This document shows, one piece after another, positions 27,808-50,255 of a stretch of DNA of 64,000 nt. Each line of letters begins with the position of its first letter. Positions within the stretch are counted from its first letter, which is position 1. A program made the translations under genes and the position numbers. The stretch is from Candidatus Latescibacterota bacterium (lineage in GTDB: Bacteria > Latescibacterota > UBA2968). The stretch lies in the NCBI GenBank assembly GCA_965207885.1, contig OZ242311.1, positions 1,984,001 to 2,048,000 of the forward strand, given 5' to 3'. Under the pieces are notes generated by a model. The model did no database searches, was not told where the DNA came from, and worked only from the letters and a program-made list of their open reading frames with translations.

Positions 27808-27838
27808 AGCCGTCACATTGTGTGGCGGCTTTTTTATT
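27808..27838 (+). terminator. Intrinsic terminator
   Basis: aagccgtcaca-ttg-tgtggcggctt followed by ttttatt. Confidence 0.7.
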
Positions 27839-31127: not shown

Positions 31128-31148
31128 AAGCCCCTTTGCATTTCATAA

Positions 31149-31319
31149 TCAGGCGCGGAACAACTCGCCCATGCGCCTGCCCAAAAATCGCCCGGCCAAA
31201 AACAAACTCACAATCAGCAACACCATACCAAAAACACCCATCGCACTGGCCAAATACGCGCCATCTGCAATGCACTCTATAAGCGCGTAAATCGCTTTTG
31301 TGATGGGATAGTACTCGCC
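31149..31319 (-). pseudogene. 3' remnant of an iron(III)-type ABC transporter permease, truncated at the island edge
   Basis: Frame absent from the ORF track: GEYYPITKAIYALIECIADGAYLASAMGVFGMVLLIVSLFLAGRFLGRRMGELFRA*; in-frame stop just upstream and no plausible start. Confidence 0.6.
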
Positions 31320-31345
31320 CTTGAGCGGTGTTTGTGACGAGTCAT

Positions 31346-31480
31346 CTCCTTAAACAGAGTAGGGTATGGTTTGTTGGACCATTCTCGCTCTGTATGTTGC
31401 GGCAGAAGACCACAGGCTGACTACCAATCCGACAGGGACCTTCTGCCGTTTTCGCTGAGAAATATCACGGCTGATCCTTA
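31346..31480. repeat. Structured leader element copy A
   Basis: ctccttaaacagagtagggtatggtttgttggaccattctcgctctgtatgttgcggcagaagaccacaggctgactaccaatccgacagggaccttctgccgttttcgctgagaaatatcacggctga. Confidence 0.9.
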
Positions 31481-31548
31481 AAATATTTGAGACGATCTAC
31501 CAGGCGGGGCTTTGTTTGGCTGTGTGATTTGGGGGTATGCCATCGCGA

Positions 31549-33939: not shown

Positions 33940-33945
33940 GTCATT

Positions 33946-34078
33946 CCTCCTTAAAAAGAGTGGGTTATGGTTTGCTGGACCATTCACGCTGTGTATGTTG
34001 CGGCAGAGGGCCACTGGCTGACTACCAATCCGACAGGGCCTTCTGCCGTTTCCGCTGAGAAATATCACGGCTGATTCT
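33946..34078. repeat. Structured leader element copy B
   Basis: Near-identical to copies A and C; ends on the minus strand in the AAGGAGG RBS of paralog 1. Confidence 0.9.
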
Positions 34079-34148
34079 TAAAATATTTGAGACGACCTGC
34101 CAGGTGGGACTTTGTTTGGCTGTGTGATTTGGGGGTATGCCATCGCGA

Positions 34149-36470
34149 TTAGTCGTCGTCGTCAATGATTACATTTACACCTACTACTACCGAGTCATAT
34201 CCACCCCCACTGGCCGTGTGCGTCAGCCGCACCCAGTAATCTATACTGTCATCGTCCTGGGCGGCTGTCACTGTCACCGTCTGCGCTGTGTTCCAGTTCT
34301 GATTAGTGAATGTGAGACTTGTGGGATCTGTCGATAGCTTGTCCGAATCAGAACTGCTGATTGTTACGGTGACATCCGCCGAGGGCTGGGTTTTTAAGGC
34401 CACAGTGTAGGTCTCGGTCGCTCCTTCTGTAACCGTGAATCCCGTCGGTGTCAGTACCAGGTCTGCTGTGCTCGTTGTACCATCGGCAACCGTAGAATTG
34501 TTCGTGACGTCCTGATAGGAAAAAAGAGCGAGCGCGTTGCCAGCCGTATCGATGAAGAATCCCGGCGCACTCTGGGCGAAGTAATTGTTGTAATCTACTT
34601 TGACACTGTCTCCCTCGGTTATGGCGGTCGATAGGGTCAGTGTGATATCGGATCCGGAAATACTGGCATTACTGGGTTCTACCACCCTGTTATTTACTGT
34701 AATCCCGGCGACGGCTTTGATGATCCGTCCCAGTTCTACATTGAGGAATGTGCTGAGCCAGGTTACCTGCGACGGCACGGTGATGTCCTCGCTGAAGGTT
34801 ATGGTGACCGTCAGGCCATCCGTGGATGTTGCAGCACTGGAGAAGGTGGGATACACACCATCTACTTTGTGATCGGAATCGAAAGGCATAGCCCGGTGGA
34901 ACAGGTCAGCGGTATTTCCCACGGCGTCCTTTATGGTACCGCCGTTGAGAGTGAGTCCACGCATGGGGAAGCCGATGCCGCGGCTTGCAGAGTCGCTCTC
35001 CTCCACTGTGTAGATAAAGACTGCGCCATCTTCATTCGCGTTAACGTAGCTGGCCTGTTCCACCGCACTATCCTCGAAGGCCAGATCAATCTGCGGCGTG
35101 CCGGTAACGGTGATGTCTTCGCTGAATGTCACTGTCACTACGATGGTATCGCCGATGGCGTAGGTGGCATCATTTTTCGGAGTAGAGGTGAATTCTATGC
35201 TTGAGATGGTAGGAGACACACCATCTACCTTGTGTTCACTGTCAGAGGCCACGGCGTCGTGGGTCAGGTCAGCGTTGTTATCATATTGGTCCTTGATAGA
35301 ACCGCCATTGAGGGTGAGTTTGTTCGCACCGATGGAGATGCCGTTGCTGTCATTGTCACCCTCCACCACCTGGGTGAGGAAGCTCACCAAGAGGGAGTCA
35401 GTAGAGACGGCGGAGTAATCCGCCCTCCTTGACTTCGCACCGATGTCCAGAGACAATAGGGGGGTGCCAGTGATGATTACTCCTTTGCTGAATGTCACTT
35501 CCACGACGATAGAGTCGCCAATGCCGTAAGCACCGTCGTCTCCTGGATCAGAGGTGATATCAATTGATGATATGGTCGGGTCTATAGCCGCCGTGATTGA
35601 GCCATCTACCTTATGACCGGACTGGTTGCCGATGCCAGAATAGATCCGATAGGCCACTGTACTCGTTCCCACGGCAGTGACGGCAGTGTGATTGATAAAA
35701 TTATGCCACGTACCGTTACTGTCCTGGTAGCCGCCGTCCATTTTTATGCCGTCGTCGTCGCGATCAGCCGATTGGACCTCATAGCCGAAGACCAGCTTGT
35801 TGGTGCCGGAGCCGCGGAGGTAACCGGCGGATTTCCAGTTGCTGCCGACCCAGAGGCCAAGTGCCGGATTGCCATCTACATCTACAGCTCTGCTGAAGGT
35901 GGCCTCGAACTCAATGGTCTCGCTTTCGCCATAGGTGTCTTCCCTGATAGGAGATGAGATTATCTCGATGTCCGTGATGTTCGGGTCATTGTCAATGATG
36001 GTGATCACGCACTTGTTGTCGCGTTCCGGATTAGTCATATCTGTGACATTGCCAGTAGTTGTAAATCGTGCAGTAAAAGTCTCGTCGCCCTCGAGCAGGC
36101 TGTCTTGTCTAGTTCGAAAGGTGCGTTTTGCCCGCCCAGCTATGCGTTCAGCATCCGTACTCCAAATCGCACCTGTATTCTGATGAACGTAATCAGTAGA
36201 ATCAGCAGTTCCAGGATCAGTATGCCAAAACGCACCGAAATTTAAACCGTGATCATGATCGGTCACAAGAACGAGAAATACATCGACATTTTCTCCTTCA
36301 ACAACTGTCGTATCCGGGCAGTCGAGGTACCAACTTGCATTGTGAGTAGCGACCTTGCTAGCTTGTTGATCTTGAGCGAATATAGTAGACGGGTTTCGAA
36401 GATTGATAAAACCTGCTGCGAGTAGTACGATGATCGCAGACCATACTAGCCTGTCAAATTTCTTTCTCAA
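34149..36470 (-). CDS. Secreted acidic surface protein, paralog 2
   Basis: Same architecture as 31549-33939; TTG at 36470 after AAGGAGG; shares near-identical blocks with paralog 1. Confidence 0.75.
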   Translation of the reverse strand: MRKKFDRLVWSAIIVLLAAGFINLRNPSTIFAQDQQASKVATHNASWYLDCPDTTVVEGENVDVFLVLVTDHDHGLNFGAFWHTDPGTADSTDYVHQNTGAIWSTDAERIAGRAKRTFRTRQDSLLEGDETFTARFTTTGNVTDMTNPERDNKCVITIIDNDPNITDIEIISSPIREDTYGESETIEFEATFSRAVDVDGNPALGLWVGSNWKSAGYLRGSGTNKLVFGYEVQSADRDDDGIKMDGGYQDSNGTWHNFINHTAVTAVGTSTVAYRIYSGIGNQSGHKVDGSITAAIDPTISSIDITSDPGDDGAYGIGDSIVVEVTFSKGVIITGTPLLSLDIGAKSRRADYSAVSTDSLLVSFLTQVVEGDNDSNGISIGANKLTLNGGSIKDQYDNNADLTHDAVASDSEHKVDGVSPTISSIEFTSTPKNDATYAIGDTIVVTVTFSEDITVTGTPQIDLAFEDSAVEQASYVNANEDGAVFIYTVEESDSASRGIGFPMRGLTLNGGTIKDAVGNTADLFHRAMPFDSDHKVDGVYPTFSSAATSTDGLTVTITFSEDITVPSQVTWLSTFLNVELGRIIKAVAGITVNNRVVEPSNASISGSDITLTLSTAITEGDSVKVDYNNYFAQSAPGFFIDTAGNALALFSYQDVTNNSTVADGTTSTADLVLTPTGFTVTEGATETYTVALKTQPSADVTVTISSSDSDKLSTDPTSLTFTNQNWNTAQTVTVTAAQDDDSIDYWVRLTHTASGGGYDSVVVGVNVIIDDDD

Positions 36471-36584
36471 ACTATACCTCCTTAAACGTAGTAGGTTATG
36501 AAGGTCTTGTAGACAGGTGAGTACGGTAAGCATAACAACAAATGCTTACCATCCAAGTATGCCGATTGTCTTTTCCAAGTCATT

Positions 36585-36718
36585 CCTCCTTAAAAAGAGT
36601 GGGTTATGGTTTGCTGGACCATTCACGCTGTGTATGTTGCGGCAGAGGACCACAGGCTGACTACCAATCCGACTGGGACCTTCTGCTGTTTACGCTGAGA
36701 AATATCACGGCTGATTCT
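36585..36718. repeat. Structured leader element copy C
   Basis: Aligns with copy B over its full length. Confidence 0.9.
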
Positions 36719-36790
36719 CAGCGTAAATTAGCCTCAAAGCGGTTCAACTTTGGGTTACATATTCTCTTATTTGACAATATAATTTTAACT

Positions 36791-36808
36791 ATGCAAAATC
36801 TGTGCCAA
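36791..36808 (-). promoter_or_regulatory. Sigma54 -24/-12 promoter
   Basis: Minus strand TTGGCAC-AGATT-TTGCAT fits the consensus TGGCAC-N5-TTGC. Confidence 0.88.
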
Positions 36809-36819
36809 CGTGAATTTGT

Positions 36820-36955
36820 CACAAGATAATTTATCATAAAGCATTATTTATATTTAAGTAATTAAAAAAGAAATATAAAAATCAGTCTGGAATTTTATAT
36901 TCTCAATTACCATATATCGTGATATTTAGCCATATATGGTGATTGTCGATATTAA
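36820..36955. promoter_or_regulatory. AT-rich IHF-like tract plus putative upstream activator sequence
   Basis: ccatatatcgtgatatttagccatatatggtgattgtcgatattaa about 100-150 bp upstream of the -24 box; conserved at 44440-44576. Confidence 0.6.
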
Positions 36956-37015
36956 GAAAGCCCGTCTGGAGTTGCCCGCTTGAGTGGATAGTGTAGAAGG
37001 TTTCCCACCTTATCT

Positions 37016-40000
37016 TTACCAGCGCAGGGTGCCTCGTGCGAGCACCTCATGGTCTGCGCCGTTTAGCAACGGGCTTTCGCGGCGTTGCACATCAACGCCC
37101 AATTCGAAGTGGGGACGCTCCCGGTTCAAAAGCGCAAGGCCGTACCCTGCTCGGTAGTCCCGGCCATACTCAGAGGTCCCAAATCCGATTCTCGGTGTCC
37201 CAACGAAGCGTCTGCCCACAGGCAGACCGTAGCCTAAATCGGCTTTGAGGCGTCTTTCTGAAGTGTGTCTGTCGGAGACCCTGAACTGCTCCATCGTCTC
37301 TCTGCCCCACAGCATTTCGGCACCACTTACTGCCTGACCGCCCCACGATGGTGAAACCCGCGCTACAAATCCCAGAGGCGTTGACGGCCTCGGATTGTAA
37401 CTGAACGAGATCGCCACACCCTTATCCTGGAACCCTTTCGCCTGGTGTACCAGCAGTGTCCGCACCCGCACGTCGGCCGACAGCCCGGACAAGGGATTTA
37501 ATGCGATCAGGCTACCGGCGAGGTCCACGCCCGCACCCGTTTCGGCGTCGCCGCCGTCGTGCCGCAACCCAACCTCCAGGCGCGGCTGCAACGACATTCC
37601 ATCCCCCAACGCGTAGCTGCGCGAGGCTTCCAGACCCGCACGCAACCGCGTCACCAACGCCCGTGTCGCCGCCAGATTCCCCGCTGGACCAGCTATGTCT
37701 GCGTTCGCCATCGCCACCCCCAGCGCATCCGTCTTGAATGCCAGCCCAAAGCCGCCCACCGACGTAAACTCGCCCCGCAGCCCCGCCGCGGCCATCGCCA
37801 TCGACAGCCCCGTCTCCAGCACCGCACCTGCGCCCGGCGTCAAGCACAACCCACCCTTGCCGTATCCGGTCACACCCCAGAGTGTGATGCGGTCGGTCGC
37901 CCTGTAGCCCAGCCACGGGTAGAGTCCTGTCACCGACGAAGCCAACTGGCCGTTGTCGATGTCTGCATACCTGCCCTGGCCCCGGCTGTGCGCCAGTGTC
38001 AGGCCCGTCACCAGCGGCCCCTTCGCGTAGTCAAAGCCGAACAGCAGCGAGCGCACAGCCCCGTTCAGTGACAGCGTACCTTCACGCCCGCTGAAATCCG
38101 AATGGGAACCGTTGCTCCAAAATGACAGGACGCTCCCGCGACGCATCTCACGGTTAAGCGTGAACGCAGAGCCGGTCAGCACATCGCCTCTACCACCCAC
38201 GGATATCCGGAGAAGTTTAGCGATGTCTAGGTCGCCACCACTTGTCCGGTGTCCGCCTGCTGCCATGCCGCCCAATCGATTGAGGAAACCCTGCGCTATA
38301 TCGCGCTCCAGGCTCCGTCTCAGGTGCCATCCCGCGACCCGACCTTCAAAGCCAGGATCGCGTGGGGCGGCAATGCGTTTCTTCACTTGCTCGACCACAC
38401 GCACTGCCACTGTGCGCCCGAAACGCGCCATATAGGCTTGAGGCATGGGGTCGGAGTTGGCAATCGTACCCGTTGCCTCGGCGCGGGTGATGGTGAGTGT
38501 GCGCAGCGTGTTGCCATTGCCATCCATCAGCCGTGCGTTGCTGATCTTGACCTTCACTGTCTCGCCGTTGTCATTCACCGTGTCGTCAATGATCCGGACG
38601 AATGGTCTTTGATGCACCTCTCTCTTATCCATCCAGTCCGAATACTTGGGGCGAGCCAGATAGTCCGTCCCTTCGATGGCGGTCCCTCCCGAGATGGTCT
38701 CGAAGTCGTACACGATGTAGTAGCGCTGCGAAGGGCGCGAAGCGGTGACGGTGAACCGGAGCCACCCGTCATCCTCATTCGCGGTTGCATCCCTGATCGA
38801 TAGCGTCGGGTACGAAGCGTTGAGGGTGAGCGACGGGGCGTTCAAGAGTAGTCTGCCGTCCGGGTCGCACAGCGCGCCGTCCAGGTTGCAGGCCTGATTG
38901 GCAGTCATCGCGACGATGACCTCGCCGTCATCGGTTTCTGGACGCACCTCCATCCGCCAATGGTTGCTGAAGGTCGCGAACTTCGTGGTGCCGGGAAGAC
39001 GCCTGCGTTTCTTGTGGATGCGCTGTGCCTTAACGATTTCACCGTCCGTCACTGTGAAGACGTAGTCGCGCATGTCCTTGAAGCTCTTGGAGATGGCTGT
39101 CGAGAGCTTCAGGTCAAAGACGTAGTGAAGCCGCCCGCCCGATCCGTCCACCGGGTTCTTCTCCACGAGTCTCGCGGTAAGCCCGGTGCTCGGTGTGCCT
39201 TTGACAATATCCGAGGGGGTGCTATCGCCCGTGTCGTTCGTCGCGATGACGCGGACCATGTACTCCGGGCCGTTGGTCACACCCGTGATCGTGTAGCTCG
39301 TGTCCTCATCGTCCTCCAGGATCGCCTGGCGCCCGTCTGTCTCCGCATCGGCAAAGGTCTCGCCCCCCGACTTCCACTCGACCTTATATCCTCTGGCACC
39401 TATCGGTCTCTCCCAGGTGACCTCGAGTTGTCCGTGCTTCGGGATCACCTGCACGCCAGTTACCTGGTCTGGAGGATTCGTGAACAGCTTTATGAGCACC
39501 ACCTCTCCGAAAGTCCAGTCCAGGTCAAACTGGTCCGGAAGACTGTCTCGCCAGTCCTGGACCTGATCGCCGAAGTGCACGACCACACCCGATCCGGTAA
39601 GGGATAAAATGGCAGTCAGGGCGTTCCAAGGGGGATCGAACCCAAGTGGTAACGACTTATTGATAGGGTCGTACTCCAGCCGGTTCAGGGTGTACGTATT
39701 GCCGAGGATCTCAAACGACCGTGGCACCAGCGCGCCCGTCCCGTTCGTCTTGTTGTACCCCAGGAGGTTCCCGTTGAGGTCAACCGTCAGGTTCGCGGTG
39801 AACGCCGCCATAGGGTCCGCAGTCGGCGCGCCCGCCGCGCGCGCCACCTTGATCGTGTAGGTCGCCGTGGTGTTGTCCTCGGCCGTGACCGTGATCGTGA
39901 CCGTGTTGAGACCCTCGGACAGCGCCAGTGTGGCCGTGCCCGGCGTGGTCGTGTCCGTATCGCCCGCGATCGCCACCGTCGCGCCGTCGTCGTTCTTCGT

Positions 40001-40225
40001 CGCCGTTACCACGATTGAAGTCGTGTCGTTCTGAACAAACACGCGGTAGGCCATCGTGTTCGCGGAGAATGTCGGGCTGAGCGTCAAGCTCGTGCCGCCA
40101 CCTGTCGTCAGCGCCAGCGCGCTCAGTGTGGCGTCGCCGGACTGCGCCATCACAGCGTGCGGAATCGCCAGTAGCGCGGCGAGTGCCAACAGAAGGATAC
40201 GGTGGAAAGTCGTGACTCTGTGCAT
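37016..40225 (-). CDS. Autotransporter-like surface protein: cadherin-like beta-sandwich, FN3, Calx-beta, C-terminal beta-barrel
   Basis: ATG 40225 after AAGGAG; signal peptide; DATLSALAL..SPTFS; LEVTW..YKVEWKSG..YMVRVIATN; ARFGRTVA linker; barrel ending LRW. Confidence 0.75.
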   Translation of the reverse strand: MHRVTTFHRILLLALAALLAIPHAVMAQSGDATLSALALTTGGGTSLTLSPTFSANTMAYRVFVQNDTTSIVVTATKNDDGATVAIAGDTDTTTPGTATLALSEGLNTVTITVTAEDNTTATYTIKVARAAGAPTADPMAAFTANLTVDLNGNLLGYNKTNGTGALVPRSFEILGNTYTLNRLEYDPINKSLPLGFDPPWNALTAILSLTGSGVVVHFGDQVQDWRDSLPDQFDLDWTFGEVVLIKLFTNPPDQVTGVQVIPKHGQLEVTWERPIGARGYKVEWKSGGETFADAETDGRQAILEDDEDTSYTITGVTNGPEYMVRVIATNDTGDSTPSDIVKGTPSTGLTARLVEKNPVDGSGGRLHYVFDLKLSTAISKSFKDMRDYVFTVTDGEIVKAQRIHKKRRRLPGTTKFATFSNHWRMEVRPETDDGEVIVAMTANQACNLDGALCDPDGRLLLNAPSLTLNASYPTLSIRDATANEDDGWLRFTVTASRPSQRYYIVYDFETISGGTAIEGTDYLARPKYSDWMDKREVHQRPFVRIIDDTVNDNGETVKVKISNARLMDGNGNTLRTLTITRAEATGTIANSDPMPQAYMARFGRTVAVRVVEQVKKRIAAPRDPGFEGRVAGWHLRRSLERDIAQGFLNRLGGMAAGGHRTSGGDLDIAKLLRISVGGRGDVLTGSAFTLNREMRRGSVLSFWSNGSHSDFSGREGTLSLNGAVRSLLFGFDYAKGPLVTGLTLAHSRGQGRYADIDNGQLASSVTGLYPWLGYRATDRITLWGVTGYGKGGLCLTPGAGAVLETGLSMAMAAAGLRGEFTSVGGFGLAFKTDALGVAMANADIAGPAGNLAATRALVTRLRAGLEASRSYALGDGMSLQPRLEVGLRHDGGDAETGAGVDLAGSLIALNPLSGLSADVRVRTLLVHQAKGFQDKGVAISFSYNPRPSTPLGFVARVSPSWGGQAVSGAEMLWGRETMEQFRVSDRHTSERRLKADLGYGLPVGRRFVGTPRIGFGTSEYGRDYRAGYGLALLNRERPHFELGVDVQRRESPLLNGADHEVLARGTLRW

Positions 40226-40232
40226 AGTTGGT

Positions 40233-40398
40233 CTCCTTAAACAGAGTGGGTTATGGTTTGTTGGACCATTCTCGCTCTGTATGTTGCGGCAGAAGATCAC
40301 AGGCTGACTACCAATCCGACTGGGACCTTCCGCTGTTTCCGTAAATATCACGACTCATTCTCTGAGCCTCAAAACGATTCAAATTTCGGGTCACATAT
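40233..40398. repeat. Structured leader element copy D with extended upstream homology but no sigma54 box
   Basis: Aligns with A/C/E; homology stops at tcacatat, about 12 bp from the activator stop codon. Confidence 0.9.
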
Positions 40399-40410
40399 CC
40401 GATACACCAT

Positions 40411-43400
40411 TTAAGGACGTTTGATCCCCAGTTTTTTCATTTTGCCATACAGGGTAGAAGGCGGTAATCTTAGCAGTGCCGCTGCGCCCCTATTCCCGCT
40501 TATCTGATAGTTGGCGATTTTGAGCACTTCGAGAATATAGTGTCGCTCATATTCATCCAAAGGCACGACTTCGCGGTCCTGAGAAACTGTCACGGTGCGC
40601 CTTTTAGGATCAAGATCCGGACCTGTGATTCGGAAACCATACAGTCCTAGATCACCCACTTCGATTTGAGAACCGCGACACACGATGACGGCTCGCTGTA
40701 TCGTATGTTCCAGTTCCCGCACATTGCCAGGCCAATCGCAGGCTTGCAACACCTCGATAACCTCTGGCGTCAAAGGGGCTATTTGCTTGCCCAAATGTGT
40801 GGCCATGCGATTTTTGAAAAACTCAGCGAGGTGCGGGATATCCTCCTTGCGCTCGCGCAAGGGAGGGAGATAGATTGGAAAAACCTGGAAACGATAATAC
40901 AGATCCTCGCGGAATGCTCCTGAACTGACCAGTTCCTCAAGATTGCGATTCGTCGCTGCCACAATGCGCGCCTGCACCGACAGCGTCTCGCTACCTCCAA
41001 CGCGCTCAAATGTACCCTCTTCCAGTAATCGCAACATCCTGACCTGTGTTTGCGGAGCCATATCGCTGACCTCGTCCAAAAAGAGCGTACCGCCCTTAGC
41101 CAGTTCTACCTTGCCCAATCTGCGAGACACTGCACTGGTAAACGCTCCCTTTTCGTGACCAAAAAGCTCACTGTCGATCAGCGTTGCTGGCAATGCTCCG
41201 CAGTTGACCTGTATAAAAGGTCCATCGCTATTGGGACTCTGCGCGTGTAACACCCGCGCAGCCAATCCCTTGCCTACACCCGTCTCGCCTATAAACAGCA
41301 CGGACAGATCAGTGGGTACTACCTTTCTAAGTTGGAATTGAAACTGTTGCAAAACCTCGCTCTGACCGATAAACTCGTTACTCCCCTGGTTATTGAGTGT
41401 CGCAGTCAGGCCCTCAATACGCGGATCTGGCTCTACAGAGAGTTGAATTTGCGCGATCTCTGAGTAATTGAGGTCGCGATCTATCGCTCTGACCTGAAAC
41501 GTGTACTCGCCCGGTGGCAAGTTCTGATAATGTGCCCTCATTTCTCGGGTCGCAGGCTGCCAGTTGGGGTCGTATCCCTTCAGGCGATAGATATAGAGCA
41601 TGTCGCGGGGATGGGTAGAAAAACTCAGGCTCTTGTATTCAAAAATTACATCTTGATCCATCGTAGAGACGATGTCTTCCTTCGGGTTCTCATAGACCTG
41701 ACCAGCGACAACTTGAATCAGGCGAATCATGGGCGGCGTCTTTCGCAGGCGGTAGCGCACCAGCGTGTTTTGGGCTGTACCGAAATAGAAGGCGCCATCG
41801 CGGTCTTCGAGTATTTTAAGCACCGGTCCTATGTGCGGTGATTTGATGGTCTGGAAAAGCTGGCCATCGTAGTGAACTACGCCGCCGTCTGTGCCGAGCC
41901 AGAGGCGACCTTGAGAGTCCTCAAGCAAGCAATGGATGCGGTTGTTCGGCAAACCGTCTTCAGTCGTGAAGGTCTGGAAGGTGCTACCATTAAAACAGGC
42001 AAGACCGCCCTGGGTCGCCACCCACAGGTTGCCATGGCGGTCTAATAGCAGGTCACTGACCCTGTCATTGATCAGCCCGTCTTCAACCCCGTAAAATTTG
42101 AGGTCATCTTTGGGATGCCAGCGTGCGAAGCCCTTGTCGATGTCAGAGAAATGTTGATGAGCGAGATAAAAATAGACCTCGCCATTGCGCCCGGTAATCA
42201 CAGTACCGATGTAGCTGAAAGGATCCTTATTTTTATCTTTTACAATAATGGTTTGGAACTGCTCACCCCGCTGACAAGTGAGTCTCAAAGGACTGGCAAA
42301 AAGTGCTCTTTTTTCTTTGTCTTTTTTATTTTCCCAATGACCGAAAAGAAATTGCCCTTCCCGATCCTGGGCAATTGCACAAACACTGCTTGAACCTGCG
42401 GTTGTTTGCATTTTTTTTATCTTCTGCCCATCGTAGCGGAATAAGCCATTGATGCCGCCAAACCACAGATACCCGTCGTGGTCTTCGTAGATGGCAAAAC
42501 AGTTATTGATATCAAAATCATCCTCAGGGCCTATCAGGTCAATGGCCTCCCCATCAAAGCGAAAGACGCTATTGCTTTGATATGTAAAAACAGGAGACAC
42601 AGACCCCACCCATATATCACCGCGACTGTCTTGCACGATCTGCGAGACCTCACTCACGCTTTCAGAAGCCCTTGCACTGAAGTCGAAAACGCTGATACTA
42701 TGCGCATCGTAAAGACCGACACCACCCCACGTAGCAAACCAATACTGATGTTCGCGATCCTGGAACACGGCTTTGACTGCGGGATGGGGCAACCCATCGG
42801 GAGGCGTAAACTTGCTGAACCCATCACCGTCCTGATAGAGCACGCCTTCTGAGGTGCAAAACCACATCCGACCTTCTCGATCGCATTGAATTTTGCGCAG
42901 TGGACTACCCAAATCTACCTGAACAGGCTGGAAATTGCCATCGGCATAGCACCAGAGTTCGTTCTGATGTCCACGTTGACCAAACCACACCTTACCGGTA
43001 TCGTCCTGCCCCACCGCATAGCTTATATCGACTGTGGGAACCCCCTCTTTCTCTTCATAGCGATGGAAGGAAGTGCCATCAAAGCGAATGAGGTGGTTAA
43101 AGCCAAACCACAGGTGGCCTTTCGGGTCCTGGGCAATGCCCCGACACTGTTTACGACGAAGTAGCGGCTCGTAGTGCTTAAGATAGAGCGGCATCAGGTC
43201 GTGGAACACAGTCCCGTCGTAATATCCCAGGGTCCTGTGACCGCCACACCATATACGCCCCTCACGATCTTCGTAGATGAACTGCACAGCGCGGCCTGCG
43301 ATCCCCTCATCTTCCAAATGATGGAAATTTGTCCCATCGTACCAGCAGACCCCATTTCGTGTACCAAACCACAACCGATCACGTCTGTCCTTTTGAACAA

Positions 43401-43605
43401 AATAAATACTATCATTAATAAGACCGTCCTGTTGCGTAAAATTTCGAAACTCGTCTCCATCAAAGCGACTAACGCCGTTATCACAGGTGGCGAACCAGAG
43501 ATAGCCCGCGCTGTCTTCGGCAATGTGTTCAATGCGCATCCCGGCCAGACCATCGGCTATAGAATAAGTCCGCCAGGTGCCTTTGCGGTTAAGTGATTGG
43601 ATCAT
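40411..43605 (-). CDS. Sigma54-dependent activator 1: Reg_prop beta-propellers + Y_Y_Y + AAA+ + Fis-type HTH
   Basis: Repeated DGL..V..I.ED..G.LWF; [24 protein letters not shown]; [37 protein letters not shown]; [10 protein letters not shown]. Confidence 0.92.
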
Positions 43606-43839
43606 AAAAATCCCCATGATACAGGTAAAAATTTAGTTCATAGTGGGGCTCCTTTCTAACTACTGAGAAGGTAACCGCCAAAACGATGCTGTTGCCGAAT
43701 TAGTCAAGAGGGAGTCTGCGGTTGGAAAAATGGCTATTTGTGGCCTGAATGCAGGCTCTGTAAGCCCTATGTTTAGTTGTATTGAGATAGAATTCGGAAT
43801 TCGGCAACAGCATCCAAAACGGGTCAAGTCCACTAACAC

Positions 43840-44163
43840 TTACAAGTCCTCGACTCTTTCGTACTCATTACGGGCACGACGTAATAATCCCGTCTTCTTA
43901 GTATCAACGACAGGACGAGTTTCCACATTATTCGTAACGGACATTGCCAAAGCCACAACCCATCCAATAAACGTCCATCCAAGAAATAAATTGATTACCA
44001 GGATGGAGGCTCGGTTTCTATGGTATCGAAAAAACGCAGTAATTGCCGGAGCGAAGTAAAGTGCCAGTAAGAGCACCAAAATAAACTGACCCATCCCGGT
44101 ATTTAACAAAGTGTCCCTGAGATCTGACAAGGCTAAATACAACATTAATAAGTCATAATACAT
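43840..44163 (-). CDS. Superinfection immunity protein (T4 Imm-like)
   Basis: LYFAPAI.AFFR.HRNRASILVINLFLGWTFIGWVVAL signature. Confidence 0.8.
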   Translation of the reverse strand: MYYDLLMLYLALSDLRDTLLNTGMGQFILVLLLALYFAPAITAFFRYHRNRASILVINLFLGWTFIGWVVALAMSVTNNVETRPVVDTKKTGLLRRARNEYERVEDL

Positions 44164-44220
44164 ATCTAATTTCTCATCGTGTAGTTTGATAAGAAATAAA
44201 CCGACAAGCCTTTAACATCA

Positions 44221-44383
44221 AAAAGAGTGGGTTATGGTTTGCTGGACCATTCCTGCTCTATATGTTGCGGCAGAAGGCCACAGGCTGACTACCAATCCGA
44301 CTGGGACCTTTTGACGTTTTTGCTGAGAAATATCACGGCTGATTCTCTGAGCATCAAAACAGTTCAAATTTTGGGTCACATAT
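44221..44383. repeat. Structured leader element copy E (no adjacent AAGGAGG)
   Basis: aaaagagtgggttatggtttgctggaccattcctgctctatatgttgcggcagaaggccacaggctgactaccaatccgactgggacc. Confidence 0.9.
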
Positions 44384-44409
44384 TCTTCTTTGCGAAATAA
44401 CTCTAAACT

Positions 44410-44427
44410 ATGCAATATCCGTGCCAA
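44410..44427 (-). promoter_or_regulatory. Sigma54 -24/-12 promoter
   Basis: Minus strand TTGGCAC-GGATA-TTGCAT. Confidence 0.88.
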
Positions 44428-44439
44428 AGTGATTTTTCA

Positions 44440-44576
44440 CAAGATAATTTTAATCATAACGTGTTATTTATGTTGAATTAATTAAAAGAGGAGATATATA
44501 AATCAGTCTGAAATTTTATATTCTCAATCACCATATATCGCGATATTTAACCATATATGATGATTGCCGATATTAA
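44440..44576. promoter_or_regulatory. IHF-like tract plus putative UAS directly after the activator 2 stop codon
   Basis: Palindrome atatcgcgatat and two ccatatat repeats; homologous to 36820-36955. Confidence 0.6.
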
Positions 44577-44582
44577 CAGAAC

Positions 44583-47500
44583 TTAAGAGAATTTGATTCC
44601 CAGTTTTCTCATTTTGCCATACAGGGTAGAAGGCGGTAGTCCCAGCAGTACCGCTGCTCCCCTATCCCCACTTATCTGATAGTTGGTGATTTTGAGTACT
44701 TCGAGAATATAGTGTCGCTCATATTCGTCCAAAGGCACGACTTCGCGGTCTTGAGAAACTGTCACGGTGCTCCTCTTAAGATCAGGAGTCGGGCCTTCGA
44801 TTCGCAAACCATGCAGTCCGAGATCCCGCACTTCGATTTGCGAACCGTGACACACGATTACGGCTCGCTGTATCGTATGCTCCAGTTCACGCACATTGCC
44901 AGGCCAATCGTAACTTTGCAATACCTTTATAACTTCTGGCTCGAGGGGAGCTATTTGTTTACCCAGGTGTGTAGCCATGCGATGCTTGAAAAACTCAGAT
45001 AGGTCCGGTATATCTTCCTTGCGCTCGCGCAGTGGAGGTAGAAGAATTGGAAAAACCTGGAAACGATAATACAGATCCTCGCGGAAAATACCTGTGCTAA
45101 CCATATCCTCCAAATTGCGATTCGTCGCAGCCACAATGCGCGCCTGTATCGATAGTGTCTCGCTACCTCCAACGCGCTCATAAGTGCCCTCTTCCAGCAA
45201 GCGCAACATCCTGGCCTGTGTTCCCACAGCCATATCGCTGACCTCGTCTAAAAAGAGCGTGCCGCCCTTAGCCAGTTCTACTTTGCCCAGCCTGAGAGAC
45301 TCTGCGCCGGTAAACGCTCCTCGTTCGTGACCAAACAGTTCACTATCGATCAGCGTTTCAGACAGTGCACCGCAGTTGACCTGTATAAAAGGTCCATTAC
45401 AATAGTGACTCTGTGCGTGTAACACCCGCGCAGCCAATCCCTTGCCTACACCCGTCTCGCCTATAATTAGCACCGTTATATCAGTGGGTGCTACCTTTCT
45501 GAGCCGGATCTGAAATTGTTGCAAAACCTCGCTCTGACCGATAAACTCGTTATCCCCCTGATTATTGAGTGTCGCAGTCAGGCCCTCAATACGCGGATCT
45601 GGCTCTACCGAGAGTTGAATCTGCGCCATCTCTGAGTAATTGAGATCACGGTCTATCGCTCTGACCTGAAAGGTGTAGTCTCCCGGTGGCAAGTTCCGGT
45701 AGTAGGCCCGCGTCTTTCGTGTCGCAGGCTGCCAGTCGGGGTCGTATCCTTCAAGACGATAGACATAGAGCATGTCGCTGGGATGGGTGGAAAAACTCAT
45801 CCCCTTATACTCAAAAGTCACCTGTTGGTCTGTCGTAGAGCCGATGCCTTCTTTCGGGTTCTCATAGACCTGATCGGCGACAACTTGAAGCAGACGCACC
45901 CTGGGCGAGGTCTGTCGCAGGCGATAGCGCACCACCGTGTTTTGTGCTGTGCCAAACCAGAAAGATCCATAGCGATCTTCGAGTATTTTGAGCACCGGTC
46001 CTATGTGCGATGACTTGATGGTCTGGAAAAGCTGGCCATCGTAGTGAACCACGCCGCCGTCTGTGCCAAGCCAAAGGTGGCCTTGCGAATCTTCGAACAA
46101 ACAACGGATGGCATTGCTCGGCAGACCATCTTTAGTCGTAAAGTTGTGGAAGGTACTGCCATCAAAGCAACTGAGACCTCTTTGAGTAGCGACCCACAGG
46201 GTGCCATTGCGGTCTTCTATAAGATCGGTGACTCTGTCATCTATCAGTCCGTCTTCAACCTCGTAAAATTTGAGGCCATCTTCGGGATGCCAGCGTGCGA
46301 AGCCCTTGTTCGTGTCGGAGAAATTTTGGTGGATGAGATGAAAATAAACCTCGCCATTGCGCCCGGTAATCACAGTGCCAATGCGGCTGTAAGGATCTTT
46401 ATCTTTTTCCTCTGAAAAAATGGTTTGGAACTGCTCACCTTGCTGACAAATGAGTCTCAATGGGTGGACAAAAAGGTATCTTCTTCTCTTTTTATTTTCG
46501 TTTTCCCAATGACCAAAAAGGAATCTCCCTTGCGAATCCTGATCAATTGCACAAATACTGCCTGAACCTGCGGGTGTTTGCATTTTTTCGAGCTTCTGCC
46601 CTTCGTAGCGAAACAAGCCATTGACGCCGCCAAACCACAGGCATCCATCACGGTCCTCGTAGATGGCAAAACAGTTGTCTATATCGCCATCTTCAGTGCC
46701 TACAAAGTCAAAGTGTTCGCCATCAAAGCGAAAAACGCTTTTCTCCAGACGGTTGAGAAAAGGAGCGGCATATCCGATCCATATATCTCCTCGCCGATCT
46801 TGTACGAGTTGTGAGATTTCACTTACTTCTCTGGATAATTTCGCACTGAGGTCGAAAACGCTGATACTCTGTGCATCGTAGAGCCCAATACCTCCCCAGG
46901 TGGCAAACCAATACTGATATTCGCGATCATGGAATACAGCTTTGACCGCGGGATGGGGCAGGCCATTGTCAGAGGTAAACCTGTTGAACCCATCACCATC
47001 CTGAAAGAACACGCCTTGTGACGTGGAAAACCACATTCGACCTTCACTATCACACTGAATTTTGCGCAGTGTGCCCTCCAAATCTACCTGAACAGACTGA
47101 AAGGAGCCATCTGCATAGCACCAGAGTTTATTTTCGTATTCGCGATAGCCGATCCACACCTTACCGGTATGGTCCTGCCCCACAGCATAGCTCGTCAGAA
47201 TGCGTGGCGGAAACCCCTCTTCCTCTTCATAGCGATGGAAGGATTGACCGTCAAAGCGGATGAGGTAGTTAAAACCAAACCACAGGTGGCCTTTCGGATC
47301 CTGGGCAATTCCCCGGCACTGGTTGGACCACTGTGGTGAAGGAGGTTTCTCGTAGTGCTGAAGATAGAGTGGGATCAGGTCGTGAAACACAGTGCCGTCG
47401 TAATATCCCAGAGTGCGATGACCACCACACCATATACGCCCCTCACGGTCTTCGTAGATGGACTGCACGGCACGGCCTGCAATCCCGTCATCCTCCAGAT

Positions 47501-47786
47501 AGTGGAAATCTGCTCCGTCATACCAGCAGACCCCATTTAGTGTACCAAACCACAACCGATCACGATTGTCCTGTAAAACAAAATGAACGCAGTCATCCAC
47601 AAGACCATCCTGTCGCGTAAAATTCTGAAACTCATCTCCGTCGAAGCGACTGACGCCGTTGTCCCAGGTAGCGAACCAGAGATAGCCTTCGCTATCCTCG
47701 GCGATGTGTTCAATGCGCATCCCGGCCAGGCCATCGGCTATAGAATAAGTCCGCCAGGTGCCCGTGCGATCAAGTGATTTGAGCAT
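44583..47786 (-). CDS. Sigma54-dependent activator 2: Reg_prop propellers + Y_Y_Y + AAA+ + HTH
   Basis: Paralog of 40411-43605 with canonical GAFTGA. Confidence 0.92.
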   Translation of the reverse strand: MLKSLDRTGTWRTYSIADGLAGMRIEHIAEDSEGYLWFATWDNGVSRFDGDEFQNFTRQDGLVDDCVHFVLQDNRDRLWFGTLNGVCWYDGADFHYLEDDGIAGRAVQSIYEDREGRIWCGGHRTLGYYDGTVFHDLIPLYLQHYEKPPSPQWSNQCRGIAQDPKGHLWFGFNYLIRFDGQSFHRYEEEEGFPPRILTSYAVGQDHTGKVWIGYREYENKLWCYADGSFQSVQVDLEGTLRKIQCDSEGRMWFSTSQGVFFQDGDGFNRFTSDNGLPHPAVKAVFHDREYQYWFATWGGIGLYDAQSISVFDLSAKLSREVSEISQLVQDRRGDIWIGYAAPFLNRLEKSVFRFDGEHFDFVGTEDGDIDNCFAIYEDRDGCLWFGGVNGLFRYEGQKLEKMQTPAGSGSICAIDQDSQGRFLFGHWENENKKRRRYLFVHPLRLICQQGEQFQTIFSEEKDKDPYSRIGTVITGRNGEVYFHLIHQNFSDTNKGFARWHPEDGLKFYEVEDGLIDDRVTDLIEDRNGTLWVATQRGLSCFDGSTFHNFTTKDGLPSNAIRCLFEDSQGHLWLGTDGGVVHYDGQLFQTIKSSHIGPVLKILEDRYGSFWFGTAQNTVVRYRLRQTSPRVRLLQVVADQVYENPKEGIGSTTDQQVTFEYKGMSFSTHPSDMLYVYRLEGYDPDWQPATRKTRAYYRNLPPGDYTFQVRAIDRDLNYSEMAQIQLSVEPDPRIEGLTATLNNQGDNEFIGQSEVLQQFQIRLRKVAPTDITVLIIGETGVGKGLAARVLHAQSHYCNGPFIQVNCGALSETLIDSELFGHERGAFTGAESLRLGKVELAKGGTLFLDEVSDMAVGTQARMLRLLEEGTYERVGGSETLSIQARIVAATNRNLEDMVSTGIFREDLYYRFQVFPILLPPLRERKEDIPDLSEFFKHRMATHLGKQIAPLEPEVIKVLQSYDWPGNVRELEHTIQRAVIVCHGSQIEVRDLGLHGLRIEGPTPDLKRSTVTVSQDREVVPLDEYERHYILEVLKITNYQISGDRGAAVLLGLPPSTLYGKMRKLGIKFS

Positions 47787-48002
47787 AATAAAACCTTATG
47801 ATACAGGTGAAAATTTTAGTTCACATCGGATAACACATCACGACTATAAACCCTTCTTAATCTATGTATTTTCATAACCAAATTTTAAGGAAAATGTTGC
47901 GATTTACGAATCTCTTTCCCTGAAGAGTTGAACTGAAACAATCTGGTTTTTCATCATATTATTACCTCTTGATTTTTGAATTTTAAAACTATACATTTAA
48001 AA

Positions 48003-48101
48003 ATAGAGTGGGTTATGGTTTGTTGGACCATTCCTGCTCTGTATGTTGCGGCAGGGGGCCACAGGCTGACTACCAATCCGACATGGCCTTCTGCCGTTTT
48101 T
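48003..48101 (+). ncRNA. Element copy F: candidate ~100-nt two-hairpin sRNA with its own promoter and U-tract
   Basis: TTGATT-N17-TACATT at 47969-47997 just before stem 1; cggcagggggcca/tggccttctgccg pairs fully with G-U, followed by ttttt; homology with the other copies ends right after. Confidence 0.5.
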
Positions 48102-48199
48102 GCTGCAATGAAAAAATAAAATAAATTTGTGTTTTTTTAATCTGATACTAAATAAAGTAAAAGTCAAGATTTTCTATATTGTTACCCGTTTTTTATGAG

Positions 48200-48232
48200 A
48201 AAAGGGCGCGTTCAAAACGCGCCCTTATTTTT
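48200..48232. terminator. Intrinsic terminator downstream of the PIG-L gene
   Basis: aagggcgcg-ttcaaaa-cgcgccctt flanked by A and T runs. Confidence 0.65.
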
Positions 48233-48242
48233 GTCCGTGGAT

Positions 48243-49061
48243 TTAAAAAAAGGGGAAAAGTTTTGGGATGTTGTCATTTGTGAGCGCGCTGCCGTATTCA
48301 CAGCCTTCAAATGCTTCGGCATATTGGACTTTTGAGCCGCGTTCTTGTCCGTAGTATTTGATCAATAGATCGCGATAGCGATCCGCTACGGTGTGAAATT
48401 GATTGAGGCGATGCCGCAACCATTCGCGGCGGTTTTGTGGGGATTCGGGTACCTGATTGAGGTGGCCCGCGTTAAAGGGCAACCATTCGTACATTTGCGA
48501 TGTGTGGCAGTGTAGCATGTCGAGTTTTTTGTCGATGACATCGTCTATGGCTATGACGACATCGGGAGAGAAAGGTTGCGGTTTTTGGAAGTTGTCGCTC
48601 AGGTACGCGATGACGGGGTTGTACGACAGGGCGGGGGTGTCTGTGCAGATGTTGGGCACGGTGACCATGTATGCCGAGTCCTGGACGAGGATGGATGTGT
48701 AGCGGTGATCGGGATGGTAGTCGTTGGGGCGATGGGTCAGGAGGAGGTCCGGCGTATAGTTGCGAATCAGGCGGATAATTTTTTTGCGATTTTCAAGGGT
48801 GGGTTCAAGTTCGCCGTCGTGGTTGTCGATTACGTGGTATTCAATGCCAGCGACTGCACCTGCTGCCTGGGTTTCGGCGCGGCGGCGACGGGCGAGTTCA
48901 ACGCCGCCAATTTCGTGATGGCCCGCGTCGCCGTTGGTGACAGAGACAAATTTTACCTCGTGCCCGAGGTTTGCGTATTTGATGGCGATGCCGCCCGCTT
49001 TGATATCGCAATCGTCGGGGTGGGCGCCAAAGACGATGATTTTCAGGGAGTGATTGTTCAT
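48243..49061 (-). CDS. PIG-L family deacetylase
   Basis: GAHPDD, TNGDAG, DYHPDH, HTSQ. Confidence 0.92.
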   Translation of the reverse strand: MNNHSLKIIVFGAHPDDCDIKAGGIAIKYANLGHEVKFVSVTNGDAGHHEIGGVELARRRRAETQAAGAVAGIEYHVIDNHDGELEPTLENRKKIIRLIRNYTPDLLLTHRPNDYHPDHRYTSILVQDSAYMVTVPNICTDTPALSYNPVIAYLSDNFQKPQPFSPDVVIAIDDVIDKKLDMLHCHTSQMYEWLPFNAGHLNQVPESPQNRREWLRHRLNQFHTVADRYRDLLIKYYGQERGSKVQYAEAFEGCEYGSALTNDNIPKLFPFF

Positions 49062-49070
49062 GGTAGTTCC

Positions 49071-50255
49071 TCAATTCGAAGGGTTTTCATTTTTTCCATG
49101 CAGGCGATAGAGGCCCACACCGCAGGCGAGTGCGCCGAGACAAAATAAGACGGAGATGCCAAAGGGCCAGATGGGTCCTCCGTCGATGAGTTTGCCGCCG
49201 CCGAGGCTGCCGGAGAGCATGCCCAGGCTCCAGGCGAGGTGGGCAGCGCCCACGACGCGGCCTTTTTCGTCTTCGCGGGCGATCAATTGTATGAGGCCCG
49301 GCATGGTGGTTGAGAGAGACCAGGCTGAGGCGGTTGCGAGAATGCCAAAGACGTAGATGCCAGTAAGGGTGTGCGCGGTCAGGGCGAGGCCGAGGGCACT
49401 GATGGCGACGAGTGACGCGGAGACGAGGATGGGACGCCAGCGCCCAATGCGGTCGCAAAGCCGACCGGTAAGTACCTGAAAACAAGCTGCGATGATCAGG
49501 CTGATGGCACTGTAATTCGTGGCTGCGGTGCTGGTGCCCGCAATGCGAAAGATGAGCAGGGGCAAGAGCAGGGTGACGGCACCCCAATAGCTGGTGGGCA
49601 GGTAGCGGATGCCCAACAGGAGGCACACGTCGAGACGGCGGAATAGTTGAATGAGTGCGGACAGGTTGCGACCATTGTCGGCAGATTTTGGCGAGGGTAT
49701 CGCAGGGAGGATCAGGATGCTCATCAGGACGAGTACTACCCCTGCGAGTGTGATGCAAAAACCGAGGGTTTGAAATCCGAATGCATCGGCGATGGGACCA
49801 GAGAGAAAATTTCCCGAAGCAGAGCCGAGGGTGTTGCCGAGGAAATAACCGGCTGATGCGATGCCGATGACAGAGGATGGGGCTGCGCTGATGAGATAGC
49901 TTTGTCCTCCGGCGCTGTTAAATCCAGAGGATATGCCGATGCCGGTACACAGAGCAGTCAGGAGGAGGGGATCGCCGCTGTAAAAAATAACGCCGGCGAG
50001 AATAGGTCCCAAGGTGCCGAGGACGTAAACGGGTTTGACGCCCCAGGTATCGGCAAGGCGGCCCGCAGGCACGGCAAAGACACCGCCTAAAATGAGAAAT
50101 GCTGCGCGCAATCCCCCGGAAAAGAGGGGCGTGCCGAGCAGGTCTGCTTCGACATATACGGGGAGGAGTGTGTTGAGCGGGGCAGAGACAAAGCTGCTGA
50201 AAAAAGAGACTATGAGCAGGGCGATGAAACGGCGATTGAGGAGTTCGGAGTACAT
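49071..50255 (-). CDS. MFS transporter
   Basis: About 12 TM segments; GRLADTWG and GRLCDRIGR motif A. Confidence 0.9.
   Translation of the reverse strand: MYSELLNRRFIALLIVSFFSSFVSAPLNTLLPVYVEADLLGTPLFSGGLRAAFLILGGVFAVPAGRLADTWGVKPVYVLGTLGPILAGVIFYSGDPLLLTALCTGIGISSGFNSAGGQSYLISAAPSSVIGIASAGYFLGNTLGSASGNFLSGPIADAFGFQTLGFCITLAGVVLVLMSILILPAIPSPKSADNGRNLSALIQLFRRLDVCLLLGIRYLPTSYWGAVTLLLPLLIFRIAGTSTAATNYSAISLIIAACFQVLTGRLCDRIGRWRPILVSASLVAISALGLALTAHTLTGIYVFGILATASAWSLSTTMPGLIQLIAREDEKGRVVGAAHLAWSLGMLSGSLGGGKLIDGGPIWPFGISVLFCLGALACGVGLYRLHGKNENPSN

Follow-up and report, generated by a model that had tools for sequence, protein, structure and literature searches.

A candidate antisense small RNA gene and its putative target modules in sigma54-dependent polysaccharide-degradation operons of an uncultured Latescibacterota bacterium

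A repeated element at a polysaccharide-degradation locus

The DNA analyzed here, a stretch of 64 kb (hereafter the window; positions 1,984,001 to 2,048,000 of contig OZ242311.1), comes from the 6.2-Mb, 97%-complete genome of an uncultured marine Latescibacterota bacterium and contains six copies (A-F), all in the same orientation, of an element of ~105 nucleotides (nt), of which copy F is 88-91% identical to the others over ~100-105 nt. According to Pfam annotation the genes neighbouring the copies all lie on the minus strand and encode a PL8 polysaccharide lyase (27837-31127, -), two large proteins without an assigned family, a protein with cadherin-like, fn3 and Calx-beta domains, a PIG-L deacetylase, an MFS transporter and two sigma54 enhancer-binding proteins. 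The latter are activator 1 (40411-43617, -), with Reg_prop and Y_Y_Y repeats, and activator 2 (44583..47786, -), which joins Reg_prop and Y_Y_Y sensor repeats to AAA+ and HTH_8 domains. Copy F sits 218 nt upstream of activator 2, with a predicted promoter divergent to that gene. We propose that F is very likely a plus-strand small RNA (sRNA) gene, because its promoter is conserved, terminators lie on the same strand in diverged homologues, its stems show compensatory changes and its base pairs show an excess of G-U. These four independent kinds of comparative evidence support the preliminary description of the window, in which F was taken for the gene of a plus-strand RNA of ~100 nt antisense to the other copies.

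The candidate sigma70-type promoter of this gene (47969..47997, +) consists of a -35 box TTGATT (47969-47974), a 17-nt spacer (47975-47991) and a -10 box TACATT (47992-47997), and the predicted start of the RNA falls at ~48003-48005, 6-8 nt past the -10 box. The pattern TTGAYT-N17-TACATT has this single match on both strands of the window (0.01 expected from shuffles) and nine matches in the 6.2 Mb of the genome. The predicted RNA of ~98 nt (48003..48101, +) comprises two stem-loops, a linker GUAUGUUG and a U-run to 48101; folding of the plus strand of 48003-48102 assigns 48003-48042 to stem-loop 1 and 48048-48097 to stem-loop 2, the stem of which has 14 pairs, three of them G-U (13 if the closing G-U is left out), with UUUUG behind it. 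The boxes with a start at ~48003, the 13-bp second stem with G-U pairs and a T-run behind it, and the end of the likeness to the other copies shortly after the U-run (boundary ~48105) had all been noted in the preliminary description, and our reading of the sequence and the fold bears them out. The plus strand folds with -46.5 kcal/mol (z = -4.23) and the opposite strand with -33.4 kcal/mol (z = -3.25). A terminator scan scored the 3' part of stem 2 together with TTTTG as terminator-like on the plus strand. Further downstream a GC-rich hairpin between an A-run and a T-run (48202..48226, both strands) is likely the terminator of the minus-strand PIG-L gene; on the plus strand its 11 pairs are followed by ATTTTTG, which is terminator-like, and it likely also serves as a back-stop, stronger than stem 2, for read-through from the sRNA gene. 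F has neither the upstream box common to the leader copies described below nor an adjacent Shine-Dalgarno sequence.

Searches of Rfam 15 returned no match in the whole window at gathering thresholds, and, with E-values up to 10 allowed on 47850-48250, nothing over F near its family's threshold. Between the sRNA promoter and activator 2 there is, on the minus strand, an AAGAGG followed by a 17-codon open reading frame (ORF), MMKNQIVSVQLFRERDS (47904-47957, -), the DNA of which is conserved. This ORF is probably not coding, because its start codon and length are not kept in relatives. We discarded the idea that the short ORF beside F makes a leader peptide or toxin, given that start and length differ among relatives and that the product is not hydrophobic; MMKNQIVSVQLFRERDS is the only short ORF beside F, and the locus does not have the makeup of a type I toxin-antitoxin system.

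Gene-like and leader-type copies in the genus

A covariance model of the element (R1) recovered the RNA family in 15 of the 20 other genomes of the genus, with up to 11 matches per genome, and in none of ten genomes from the other five genera of the taxonomic family; of the same 20 genomes, 12 gave the element in a BLAST-type search. F itself is the top R1 match in its own genome, at 96.3 bits, the model including F. The 56 copies that we collected were assigned by eye from their context, in part from the promoter itself, before any counting, to a gene-like class (41 copies) and a leader-type class (15 copies). A script detected TT[GC]NNN-N16-18-TANNNT 0-12 nt before stem 1 in 37 of the 41 gene-like and in none of the 15 leader-type copies, a count for which the sorting is partly circular, as it is not for terminators or structure, and which, like the others given here, is not made of independent cases, copies within the genus being related. 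Of the four gene-like copies that lack the pattern, one is truncated where its contig stops. Across 17 aligned F- and S-class copies T20 and T21 of the -35 box are invariant and G22 is at least 90% conserved, T43, A44, A46 and T48 of the -10 box are invariant, and the 17-nt spacing is kept; we read these boxes as a promoter because they persist while spacer and flanks vary. The same boxes are also present in more diverged members of the family, down to 38 bits.

Downstream of stem 2, about 22 of the 35 gene-like copies outside the F class have, on the same strand, a GC hairpin of the CGCAG...CTGCG type plus a T-rich tail, by a hand tally that sets aside a few other hairpins flagged by the script, and the stems of these terminators show double changes from G-C to A-T. 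The gene-like copies have in this way a promoter at a fixed distance and an intrinsic terminator on the same strand, as befits an sRNA gene. They adjoin unrelated genes, encoding ankyrin-repeat, leucine-rich-repeat, CARDB, Calx-beta and family-less proteins, and the conserved unit would therefore be the RNA gene itself. When ten of the genes divergent from the diverged sRNA copies (L015-L019, L028-L031, L036) were tested, six had a family and four had none. At three S-class loci (L079:530-600, L080:1520-1586, L081:530-600) GTTGCAT, ~17 nt and ATGCAAC lie just upstream of the -35 box. This imperfect palindrome is common to many of the diverged sRNA genes and might bind a regulator or else form a hairpin in the divergent gene's leader.

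The two stems provide evidence of a different kind. The 41 gene-like copies have 1021 cells in these stems, 95.3% of them paired, and 11 of the 25 base pairs show changes on both sides, in an alignment that was fitted to the covariance model and so favours the structure. None of 500 shuffles reached the observed percentage paired, number of double-change pairs, number of double-change cells or covariation score, and controls in which the partners were slid by 1-3 columns were 45.7-62.5% paired. The cells divide into 858 Watson-Crick pairs, 115 G-U pairs, 25 A-C and 23 other mismatches, and G-U exceeds A-C in 35 of the 41 sequences (equal in three, fewer in three). Since a G-U pair becomes an A-C mismatch on the other strand, this excess argues that the functional RNA comes from the strand with the promoter. 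In the six F-class copies the plus strand has 138 Watson-Crick pairs, 30 G-U pairs and no mismatch. Compensatory changes and a strand-specific G-U pattern are together what a structured RNA family displays, and these comparisons document the gene-like nature of F as well as its strand and fold.

The same counts bear on a simpler explanation, that F is, like A-E, only part of a 5' untranslated region, here that of activator 2 on the minus strand, with no plus-strand RNA and with plus-strand features that arose by chance in AT-rich DNA. In its favour the seven copies known from this genome share their orientation relative to the downstream genes, the promoter of F matches the consensus at 8 of 12 positions, and a candidate minus-strand promoter lies upstream. 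Yet the 30 G-U and zero A-C cells of the F-class copies would turn into 30 mismatches if the minus strand were the functional one, the promoter boxes and plus-strand terminators persist beside unrelated genes in homologues scoring as low as 38 bits, and F is missing both the upstream box and the Shine-Dalgarno sequence that go with leader copies. We regard this explanation as very improbable.

The leader-type copies behave differently. All 15 lie on the sense strand of the next gene, and TGGCAC-N5-TTGC, a sigma54-type promoter pattern, is present within 120 nt upstream of ten of them. Their 362 cells with letters comprise 272 Watson-Crick pairs, 33 G-U pairs, 26 A-C and 31 other mismatches, so that pairing is confined to the mRNA strand in 26 cells and to the opposite strand in 33, and fails on both in 31. 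On these counts the leader-type copies appear to conserve sequence and not fold, with no preferred strand, and the conserved mRNA-strand structure of a cis-acting leader RNA or riboswitch was not found in them, A-E included.

A scan of genome contigs with an 18-nt motif gave 30 loci, of which 18 were confirmed by the element profile at E <= 1e-10; 16 of these are in metagenome-assembled genomes (MAGs) of Latescibacterota or Latescibacteria and two in a single MAG labelled 'uncultured bacterium'. Eleven of the 30 were discarded as chance 18-mer matches with no profile match, and one marginal case (E 5.4e-4) was likewise treated as chance. Phage and plasmid collections gave no match to the element, and the single locus that the motif turned up among viral contigs was not borne out by the element profile. 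In the same-genus genome G017, which has no R1 match, an array of clustered regularly interspaced short palindromic repeats (CRISPR; L020:1497-1530, 32-nt repeat) includes a 34-nt spacer matching the region of the linker and stem-loop 1 at 30 of 34 positions, with a 29-nt run containing one mismatch; TTC precedes the target in the element copies. A spacer of this kind in a genome without a copy hints that these bacteria take in element-bearing DNA from elsewhere.

Such a spacer in a relative without a copy, the multiplicity of the element (up to 11 matches per genome) and its patchy presence in 15 of 20 genomes of the genus would suit a dispersed selfish repeat, resembling a miniature transposon, that has no function at the RNA level and owes its conservation to recent spread. 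We consider this extremely improbable: a repeat of that sort would not be expected to show compensatory changes in 11 of 25 pairs and a strand-specific excess of G-U, to be placed in a fixed way with respect to promoters, terminators and Shine-Dalgarno sequences, or to be oriented non-randomly, with every one of the leader-type copies sense to the next gene, and the phage, plasmid and viral collections gave no confirmed match.

Predicted target modules and the proposed mode of action

The sigma54 promoter pattern TGGCAC-N5-TTGC has two matches in the window (0.02 expected), which stand before copies C and E only. Copy E (44214..44328, -) forms a 5' leader ~85 nt downstream of the sigma54-type promoter TGGCACGGATATTGC (44412..44426, -), and is followed by ~600 nt with two small ORFs and no immediate Shine-Dalgarno sequence before activator 1. 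Directly after the stop codon of activator 1 comes copy D (40233..40347, -), then AAGGAG and the ATG of the 1111-residue protein with cadherin-like, fn3 and Calx-beta domains. Copy C (36586..36700, -) is again a 5' leader, behind the sigma54-type promoter TGGCACAGATTTTGC (36793..36807, -), and precedes AAGGAGG and the TTG start of a 794-residue protein. Copy B (33947..34061, -) follows the stop codon of that gene and leads, through AAGGAGG, into the TTG start of an 839-residue protein, while copy A (31346..31460, -) is followed by AAGGAG and a short ATG-initiated ORF (MTRHKHR...) that precedes the PL8 lyase gene. A, B and D are to be taken as intercistronic, because each follows the stop codon of the gene upstream. 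The window thus holds two apparent sigma54 operons: one with the E leader, the small ORFs, activator 1, the D module and the cadherin-like gene, and one with the C leader, its gene, the B module, a second gene, the A module, the short ORF and the PL8 lyase. The earlier suggestion that F is antisense to the 5' leaders of all the cargo genes is accordingly refined: of the complementary copies only C and E are true leaders behind sigma54 promoters, and A, B and D lie between cistrons.

Two further features of these operons may be recorded. The first ORF behind leader E (43840-44163, -; 107 residues) precedes activator 1, apparently in one operon with it, and is a match to PF14373, the family of superinfection immunity proteins. 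Paired CCATATAT...GTGAT motifs occur in a 92-nt direct repeat, the copies of which, at 36864-36955 and 44485-44576, are 89% identical and each lie 57-150 nt upstream of one of the two sigma54 promoters; the repeat may be an enhancer site bound by the Reg_prop activators.

Elsewhere in the genome there is a seventh copy, of the leader type (C1:1257335-1257439, +), behind its own TGGCACGGATATTGC sigma54 promoter. It is followed by AAGAAG and a short ORF starting MTRHKHR, the same start as in the ORF after copy A and after the leader copy at locus L009, with a similar one (MIRH...) at L014. A second, diverged gene of the sRNA family (C1:4180883-4180983, -; 38 bits to R1) has a full promoter, AAATGCAACTTGATTT...TACATT, and a terminator hairpin. 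What seems to be a truncated member acting as the 5' end of an mRNA (C1:3510264-3510400, +) has the family promoter and only a stretch like stem-loop 1, followed by AAAGGAG and an ATG ORF on the same strand.

Aligned with the reverse-complementary modules, the predicted F RNA forms 80-85 Watson-Crick and 3-6 G-U pairs with each of A-E and the seventh copy, with 4-6 mismatches and 0-1 gaps per copy; for the five modules in the window the ranges are 81-85 and 3-6. The individual values (Watson-Crick, G-U, mismatches, gaps) are 82, 6, 4 and 1 for A; 85, 3, 4 and 0 for B; 82, 5, 5 and 1 for C; 81, 6, 5 and 1 for D; and 83, 5, 4 and 1 for E, whose duplex is predicted at -181.5 kcal/mol. Predicted duplex energies of F with its targets range from -167 to -186 kcal/mol, set against means of -56 to -61 kcal/mol for shuffled F, so that the pairing foreseen for the leaders, B-D among them, lies far below the shuffled values; the diverged paralogue, at -71 to -89 kcal/mol, complements the leader modules much less well than F does. 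In A-D the predicted duplex stops 2-5 nt short of AAGGAG(G) and the start codon, an extended and nearly perfect complementarity to a leader beside a ribosome-binding site. The preliminary description had this complementarity reach the edge of the Shine-Dalgarno sequence throughout, which is right for A-D; E has no such sequence immediately behind it. Differences between F and its targets number 48 in 56 stem columns versus 17 in 38 unpaired columns, and loops and linker are nearly identical, as loop-initiated antisense pairing would require. Co-evolution of sRNAs and leaders was considered and dropped, there being no systematic excess of complementarity within genomes.

Based on these observations we propose the following course of events. 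The sigma70-type promoter would start an F RNA of ~98 nt at ~48003-48005, which would end at the U-run after stem 2 or, on read-through, at the 48202-48226 hairpin. The reverse complement of this sRNA appears to have been copied into sigma54-dependent polysaccharide-degradation operons of this genome and its closest relatives, giving here six mRNA-strand target modules, five in the window and one outside it behind its own sigma54 promoter. The RNA would meet the modules through its loops and linker and then zip into a duplex of ~100 bp abutting the ribosome-binding site, which would block initiation, make the mRNA a substrate of RNase III, or both; genes for RNase III and RpoN are present in the genome. 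Hfq would take no part: a search for it (PF17209) gave no match in the 97%-complete genome, and the predicted pairing runs over ~100 nt instead of the short seeds of Hfq-dependent trans-acting sRNAs. Since activator 1 lies in a target operon and activator 2 next to F, the RNA could set a threshold on a sigma54 positive-feedback circuit. Expression of F and pairing in vivo are here inferred from the sequence, and we think it probable that the F RNA regulates the leader copies by pairing with them; that the net effect is repression has, in our estimate, slightly less than an even chance, the folds of the leaders being inconsistent at the Shine-Dalgarno sequence. To the reading as a whole, with F as an sRNA gene, the modules as its targets and a threshold on the sigma54 circuit, we assign a probability of about 0.6.

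An sRNA that pairs with the modules might also activate, for instance if cleavage of the duplex by RNase III separated and stabilized downstream cistrons or removed an inhibitory leader. Three of the five modules in the window are intercistronic, where processing would lead to discoordinate expression; the genome encodes RNase III; and the folded leaders do not agree on the state of the Shine-Dalgarno sequence. A duplex ending 2-5 nt from the Shine-Dalgarno sequence is, however, more simply inhibitory, and known long antisense RNAs at ribosome-binding sites mostly repress; activation strikes us as distinctly unlikely.

The strand opposite F raises a further possibility. A candidate promoter on it (48139..48167, -) consists of TTGACT (48167-48162), a 17-nt spacer and CAGATT (48144-48139); the block TAGAAAATCTTGACTTTTAC, which contains the TTGACT, is a conserved island amid variable flanks in six aligned F-class loci, and the 218-nt region between F and the start codon of activator 2 is highly conserved in loci of this class. 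The box is a weak match to the consensus and is absent from the list of a generic promoter scan. It may send the transcript of activator 2 through F, in which case F would also be cis-antisense to the long leader of that gene. For A-E, which have no antisense promoter, no such cis arrangement is seen, and for the activator 2 leader it hangs on the candidate minus-strand promoter. The claim that F is a stand-alone sRNA gene consequently stands as to promoter, terminators, structure and strand, and is to be qualified in that F may not be purely stand-alone.

If the minus-strand promoter is real, a model becomes attractive in which F acts mainly on the leader of activator 2 and the five or six operon modules are decoys that, once induced, soak up the sRNA and de-repress activator 2 in a feed-forward switch. 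The conserved island and the conserved 218 nt speak for this, as does the linkage of the F-class gene to a Reg_prop sigma54 activator, kept in all four relatives tested while the other flank varies. So do strong sigma70-like boxes seen by eye on the gene strand beyond the sRNA terminator in several S-class loci (L016 and L031), and the conservation of sequence rather than structure in the leader copies. The weakness of the CAGATT box, unlisted by the promoter scan, speaks against it, and modules set against the Shine-Dalgarno sequence in A-D suit a translational target and would be unneeded in a decoy. We judge this arrangement unlikely, and retain the proposal that the modules are the targets of a trans-acting F RNA.

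Several observations weigh against that proposal, in addition to the circularity, relatedness and alignment fitting stated with the counts above. As a bare match the promoter of F is modest (8 of 12 consensus positions of sigma70), its spacer is AT-rich, and the generic sigma70 scan, with its threshold of 9 of 12, does not list it. The conserved opposite-strand box means that the minus strand of F may be transcribed as well. A search for RNA runs over 40000-49900 returned none, and four runs of unspecified kind that cover the locus, examined over 31000-49500, turned out to be contigs whose depth is even from gene to gene, the longest record being 118 kb, and so do not bear on transcripts, strands or ends. 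The genome has seven sigma54 promoters of this subtype, and behind four of these the element is missing. Comparison of sRNA-leader complementarity within and across genomes gave a clear preference for the own genome in only two of seven genomes (G005 and, for one copy, G014), and the leader folds show no consistent state of the Shine-Dalgarno sequence. Finally, five genomes of the genus (G002, G004, G015, G019, G020) have sRNA genes and no leader-type copy among the loci read, and there the RNA would therefore have another target or role.

Relation to known antisense systems

By description, the closest functional analogue of F appears to be the DonS family of Bacteroides, antisense RNAs of 78-128 nt that repress polysaccharide utilization loci and are cis-encoded, one per locus, opposite susC homologues, as these RNAs are portrayed in PMC7366714, citing Cao et al. 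2016. As far as that account goes, DonS-type RNAs and F share a length of ~80-130 nt, an association with a polysaccharide-degradation cluster and an antisense relation to the 5' region of the cluster's transcripts. Unlike the DonS RNAs so described, F is a single gene facing five modules at other sites in the window plus a sixth elsewhere, its modules precede each cistron, the operons are sigma54-dependent and the host belongs to the phylum Latescibacterota. It is on this description that F is set apart from DonS; Rfam gave no match for F.

In mechanism the F RNA may resemble more closely the countertranscripts of plasmids and transposons. CopA of plasmid R1, which acts on CopT, and RNA-OUT of IS10, which acts on RNA-IN, are structured antisense RNAs of ~70-100 nt that have their own constitutive-type promoter, work independently of Hfq and form duplexes cut by RNase III. 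RNAs of this type are complementary over their full length to a leader by the ribosome-binding site, act in trans on every copy of the target and nucleate pairing at their loops; they are transcribed from the DNA that encodes their own target, and control the replication or transposition of a mobile element. Loop 1 of F contains UUUG, which fits the YUNR turn motif. In contrast to CopA and RNA-OUT, the predicted targets of F are dispersed chromosomal catabolic modules, with no antisense promoter in any of the 15 leader-type copies.

Two other systems share individual features with the one proposed here. The Qrr sRNAs of the Vibrio LuxO/sigma54 circuit are encoded by sigma54-dependent genes, need Hfq and pair through short seeds. 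As with F, they form an sRNA layer in a circuit of a sigma54 enhancer-binding protein, with a gene beside the regulator, multi-copy paralogues and a proposed threshold; F differs in its sigma70-type promoter, with sigma54 driving the targets instead, in the absence of a detected Hfq and in a predicted pairing of ~100 nt. The Correia elements of Neisseria and the ERIC elements of enterobacteria are transcribed intergenic repeats that form RNase III substrates through intramolecular hairpins and have no dedicated trans-acting RNA gene. Like the modules, they are repeats of ~100-150 nt in 5' leaders and between cistrons that influence the processing of mRNA, whereas the leader copies studied here form poor helices by themselves, and the complementary strand would come from F, a copy elsewhere with its own promoter.

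A full-text literature search pairing small RNA with Latescibacteria returned nothing relevant, and neither one on repeat-derived antisense sRNAs nor a listing of work on sponge Latescibacterota yielded anything on RNAs of the F family; to our knowledge Latescibacterota has no cultured members and no described sRNAs. Judged by the comparisons above, F seems to represent a new RNA family, outside Rfam and recovered by R1 only in one Latescibacterota genus, and the system to which it belongs a new variant of antisense control. More tentatively, we suggest that this variant amounts to a copy-and-paste RNA 'operator' regulon, in which one constitutive antisense RNA of ~100 nt would control many cistrons through portable modules, each the reverse complement of the whole sRNA, placed before their ribosome-binding sites, including those within operons. 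It might then be viewed, no less tentatively, as a chromosomal multi-target version of plasmid-type countertranscript control, built into a polysaccharide-sensing sigma54 circuit with a threshold or titration switch.

With its 41 gene-like copies and 11 covarying pairs the F family is well supported and could join the RNA databases, and the pair of sRNA and module, being orthogonal and free of a chaperone, could be moved into model hosts. If the proposal is true, these bacteria would possess a post-transcriptional regulon unlike the short-seed, Hfq-assisted model, in which whole-length modules, duplicated before single cistrons, would all be under the control of one RNA gene, itself linked to the sigma54 activator of the pathway. 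It would also offer a testable circuit by which uncultured marine bacteria that degrade polysaccharides could gate the costly enzymes they secrete.

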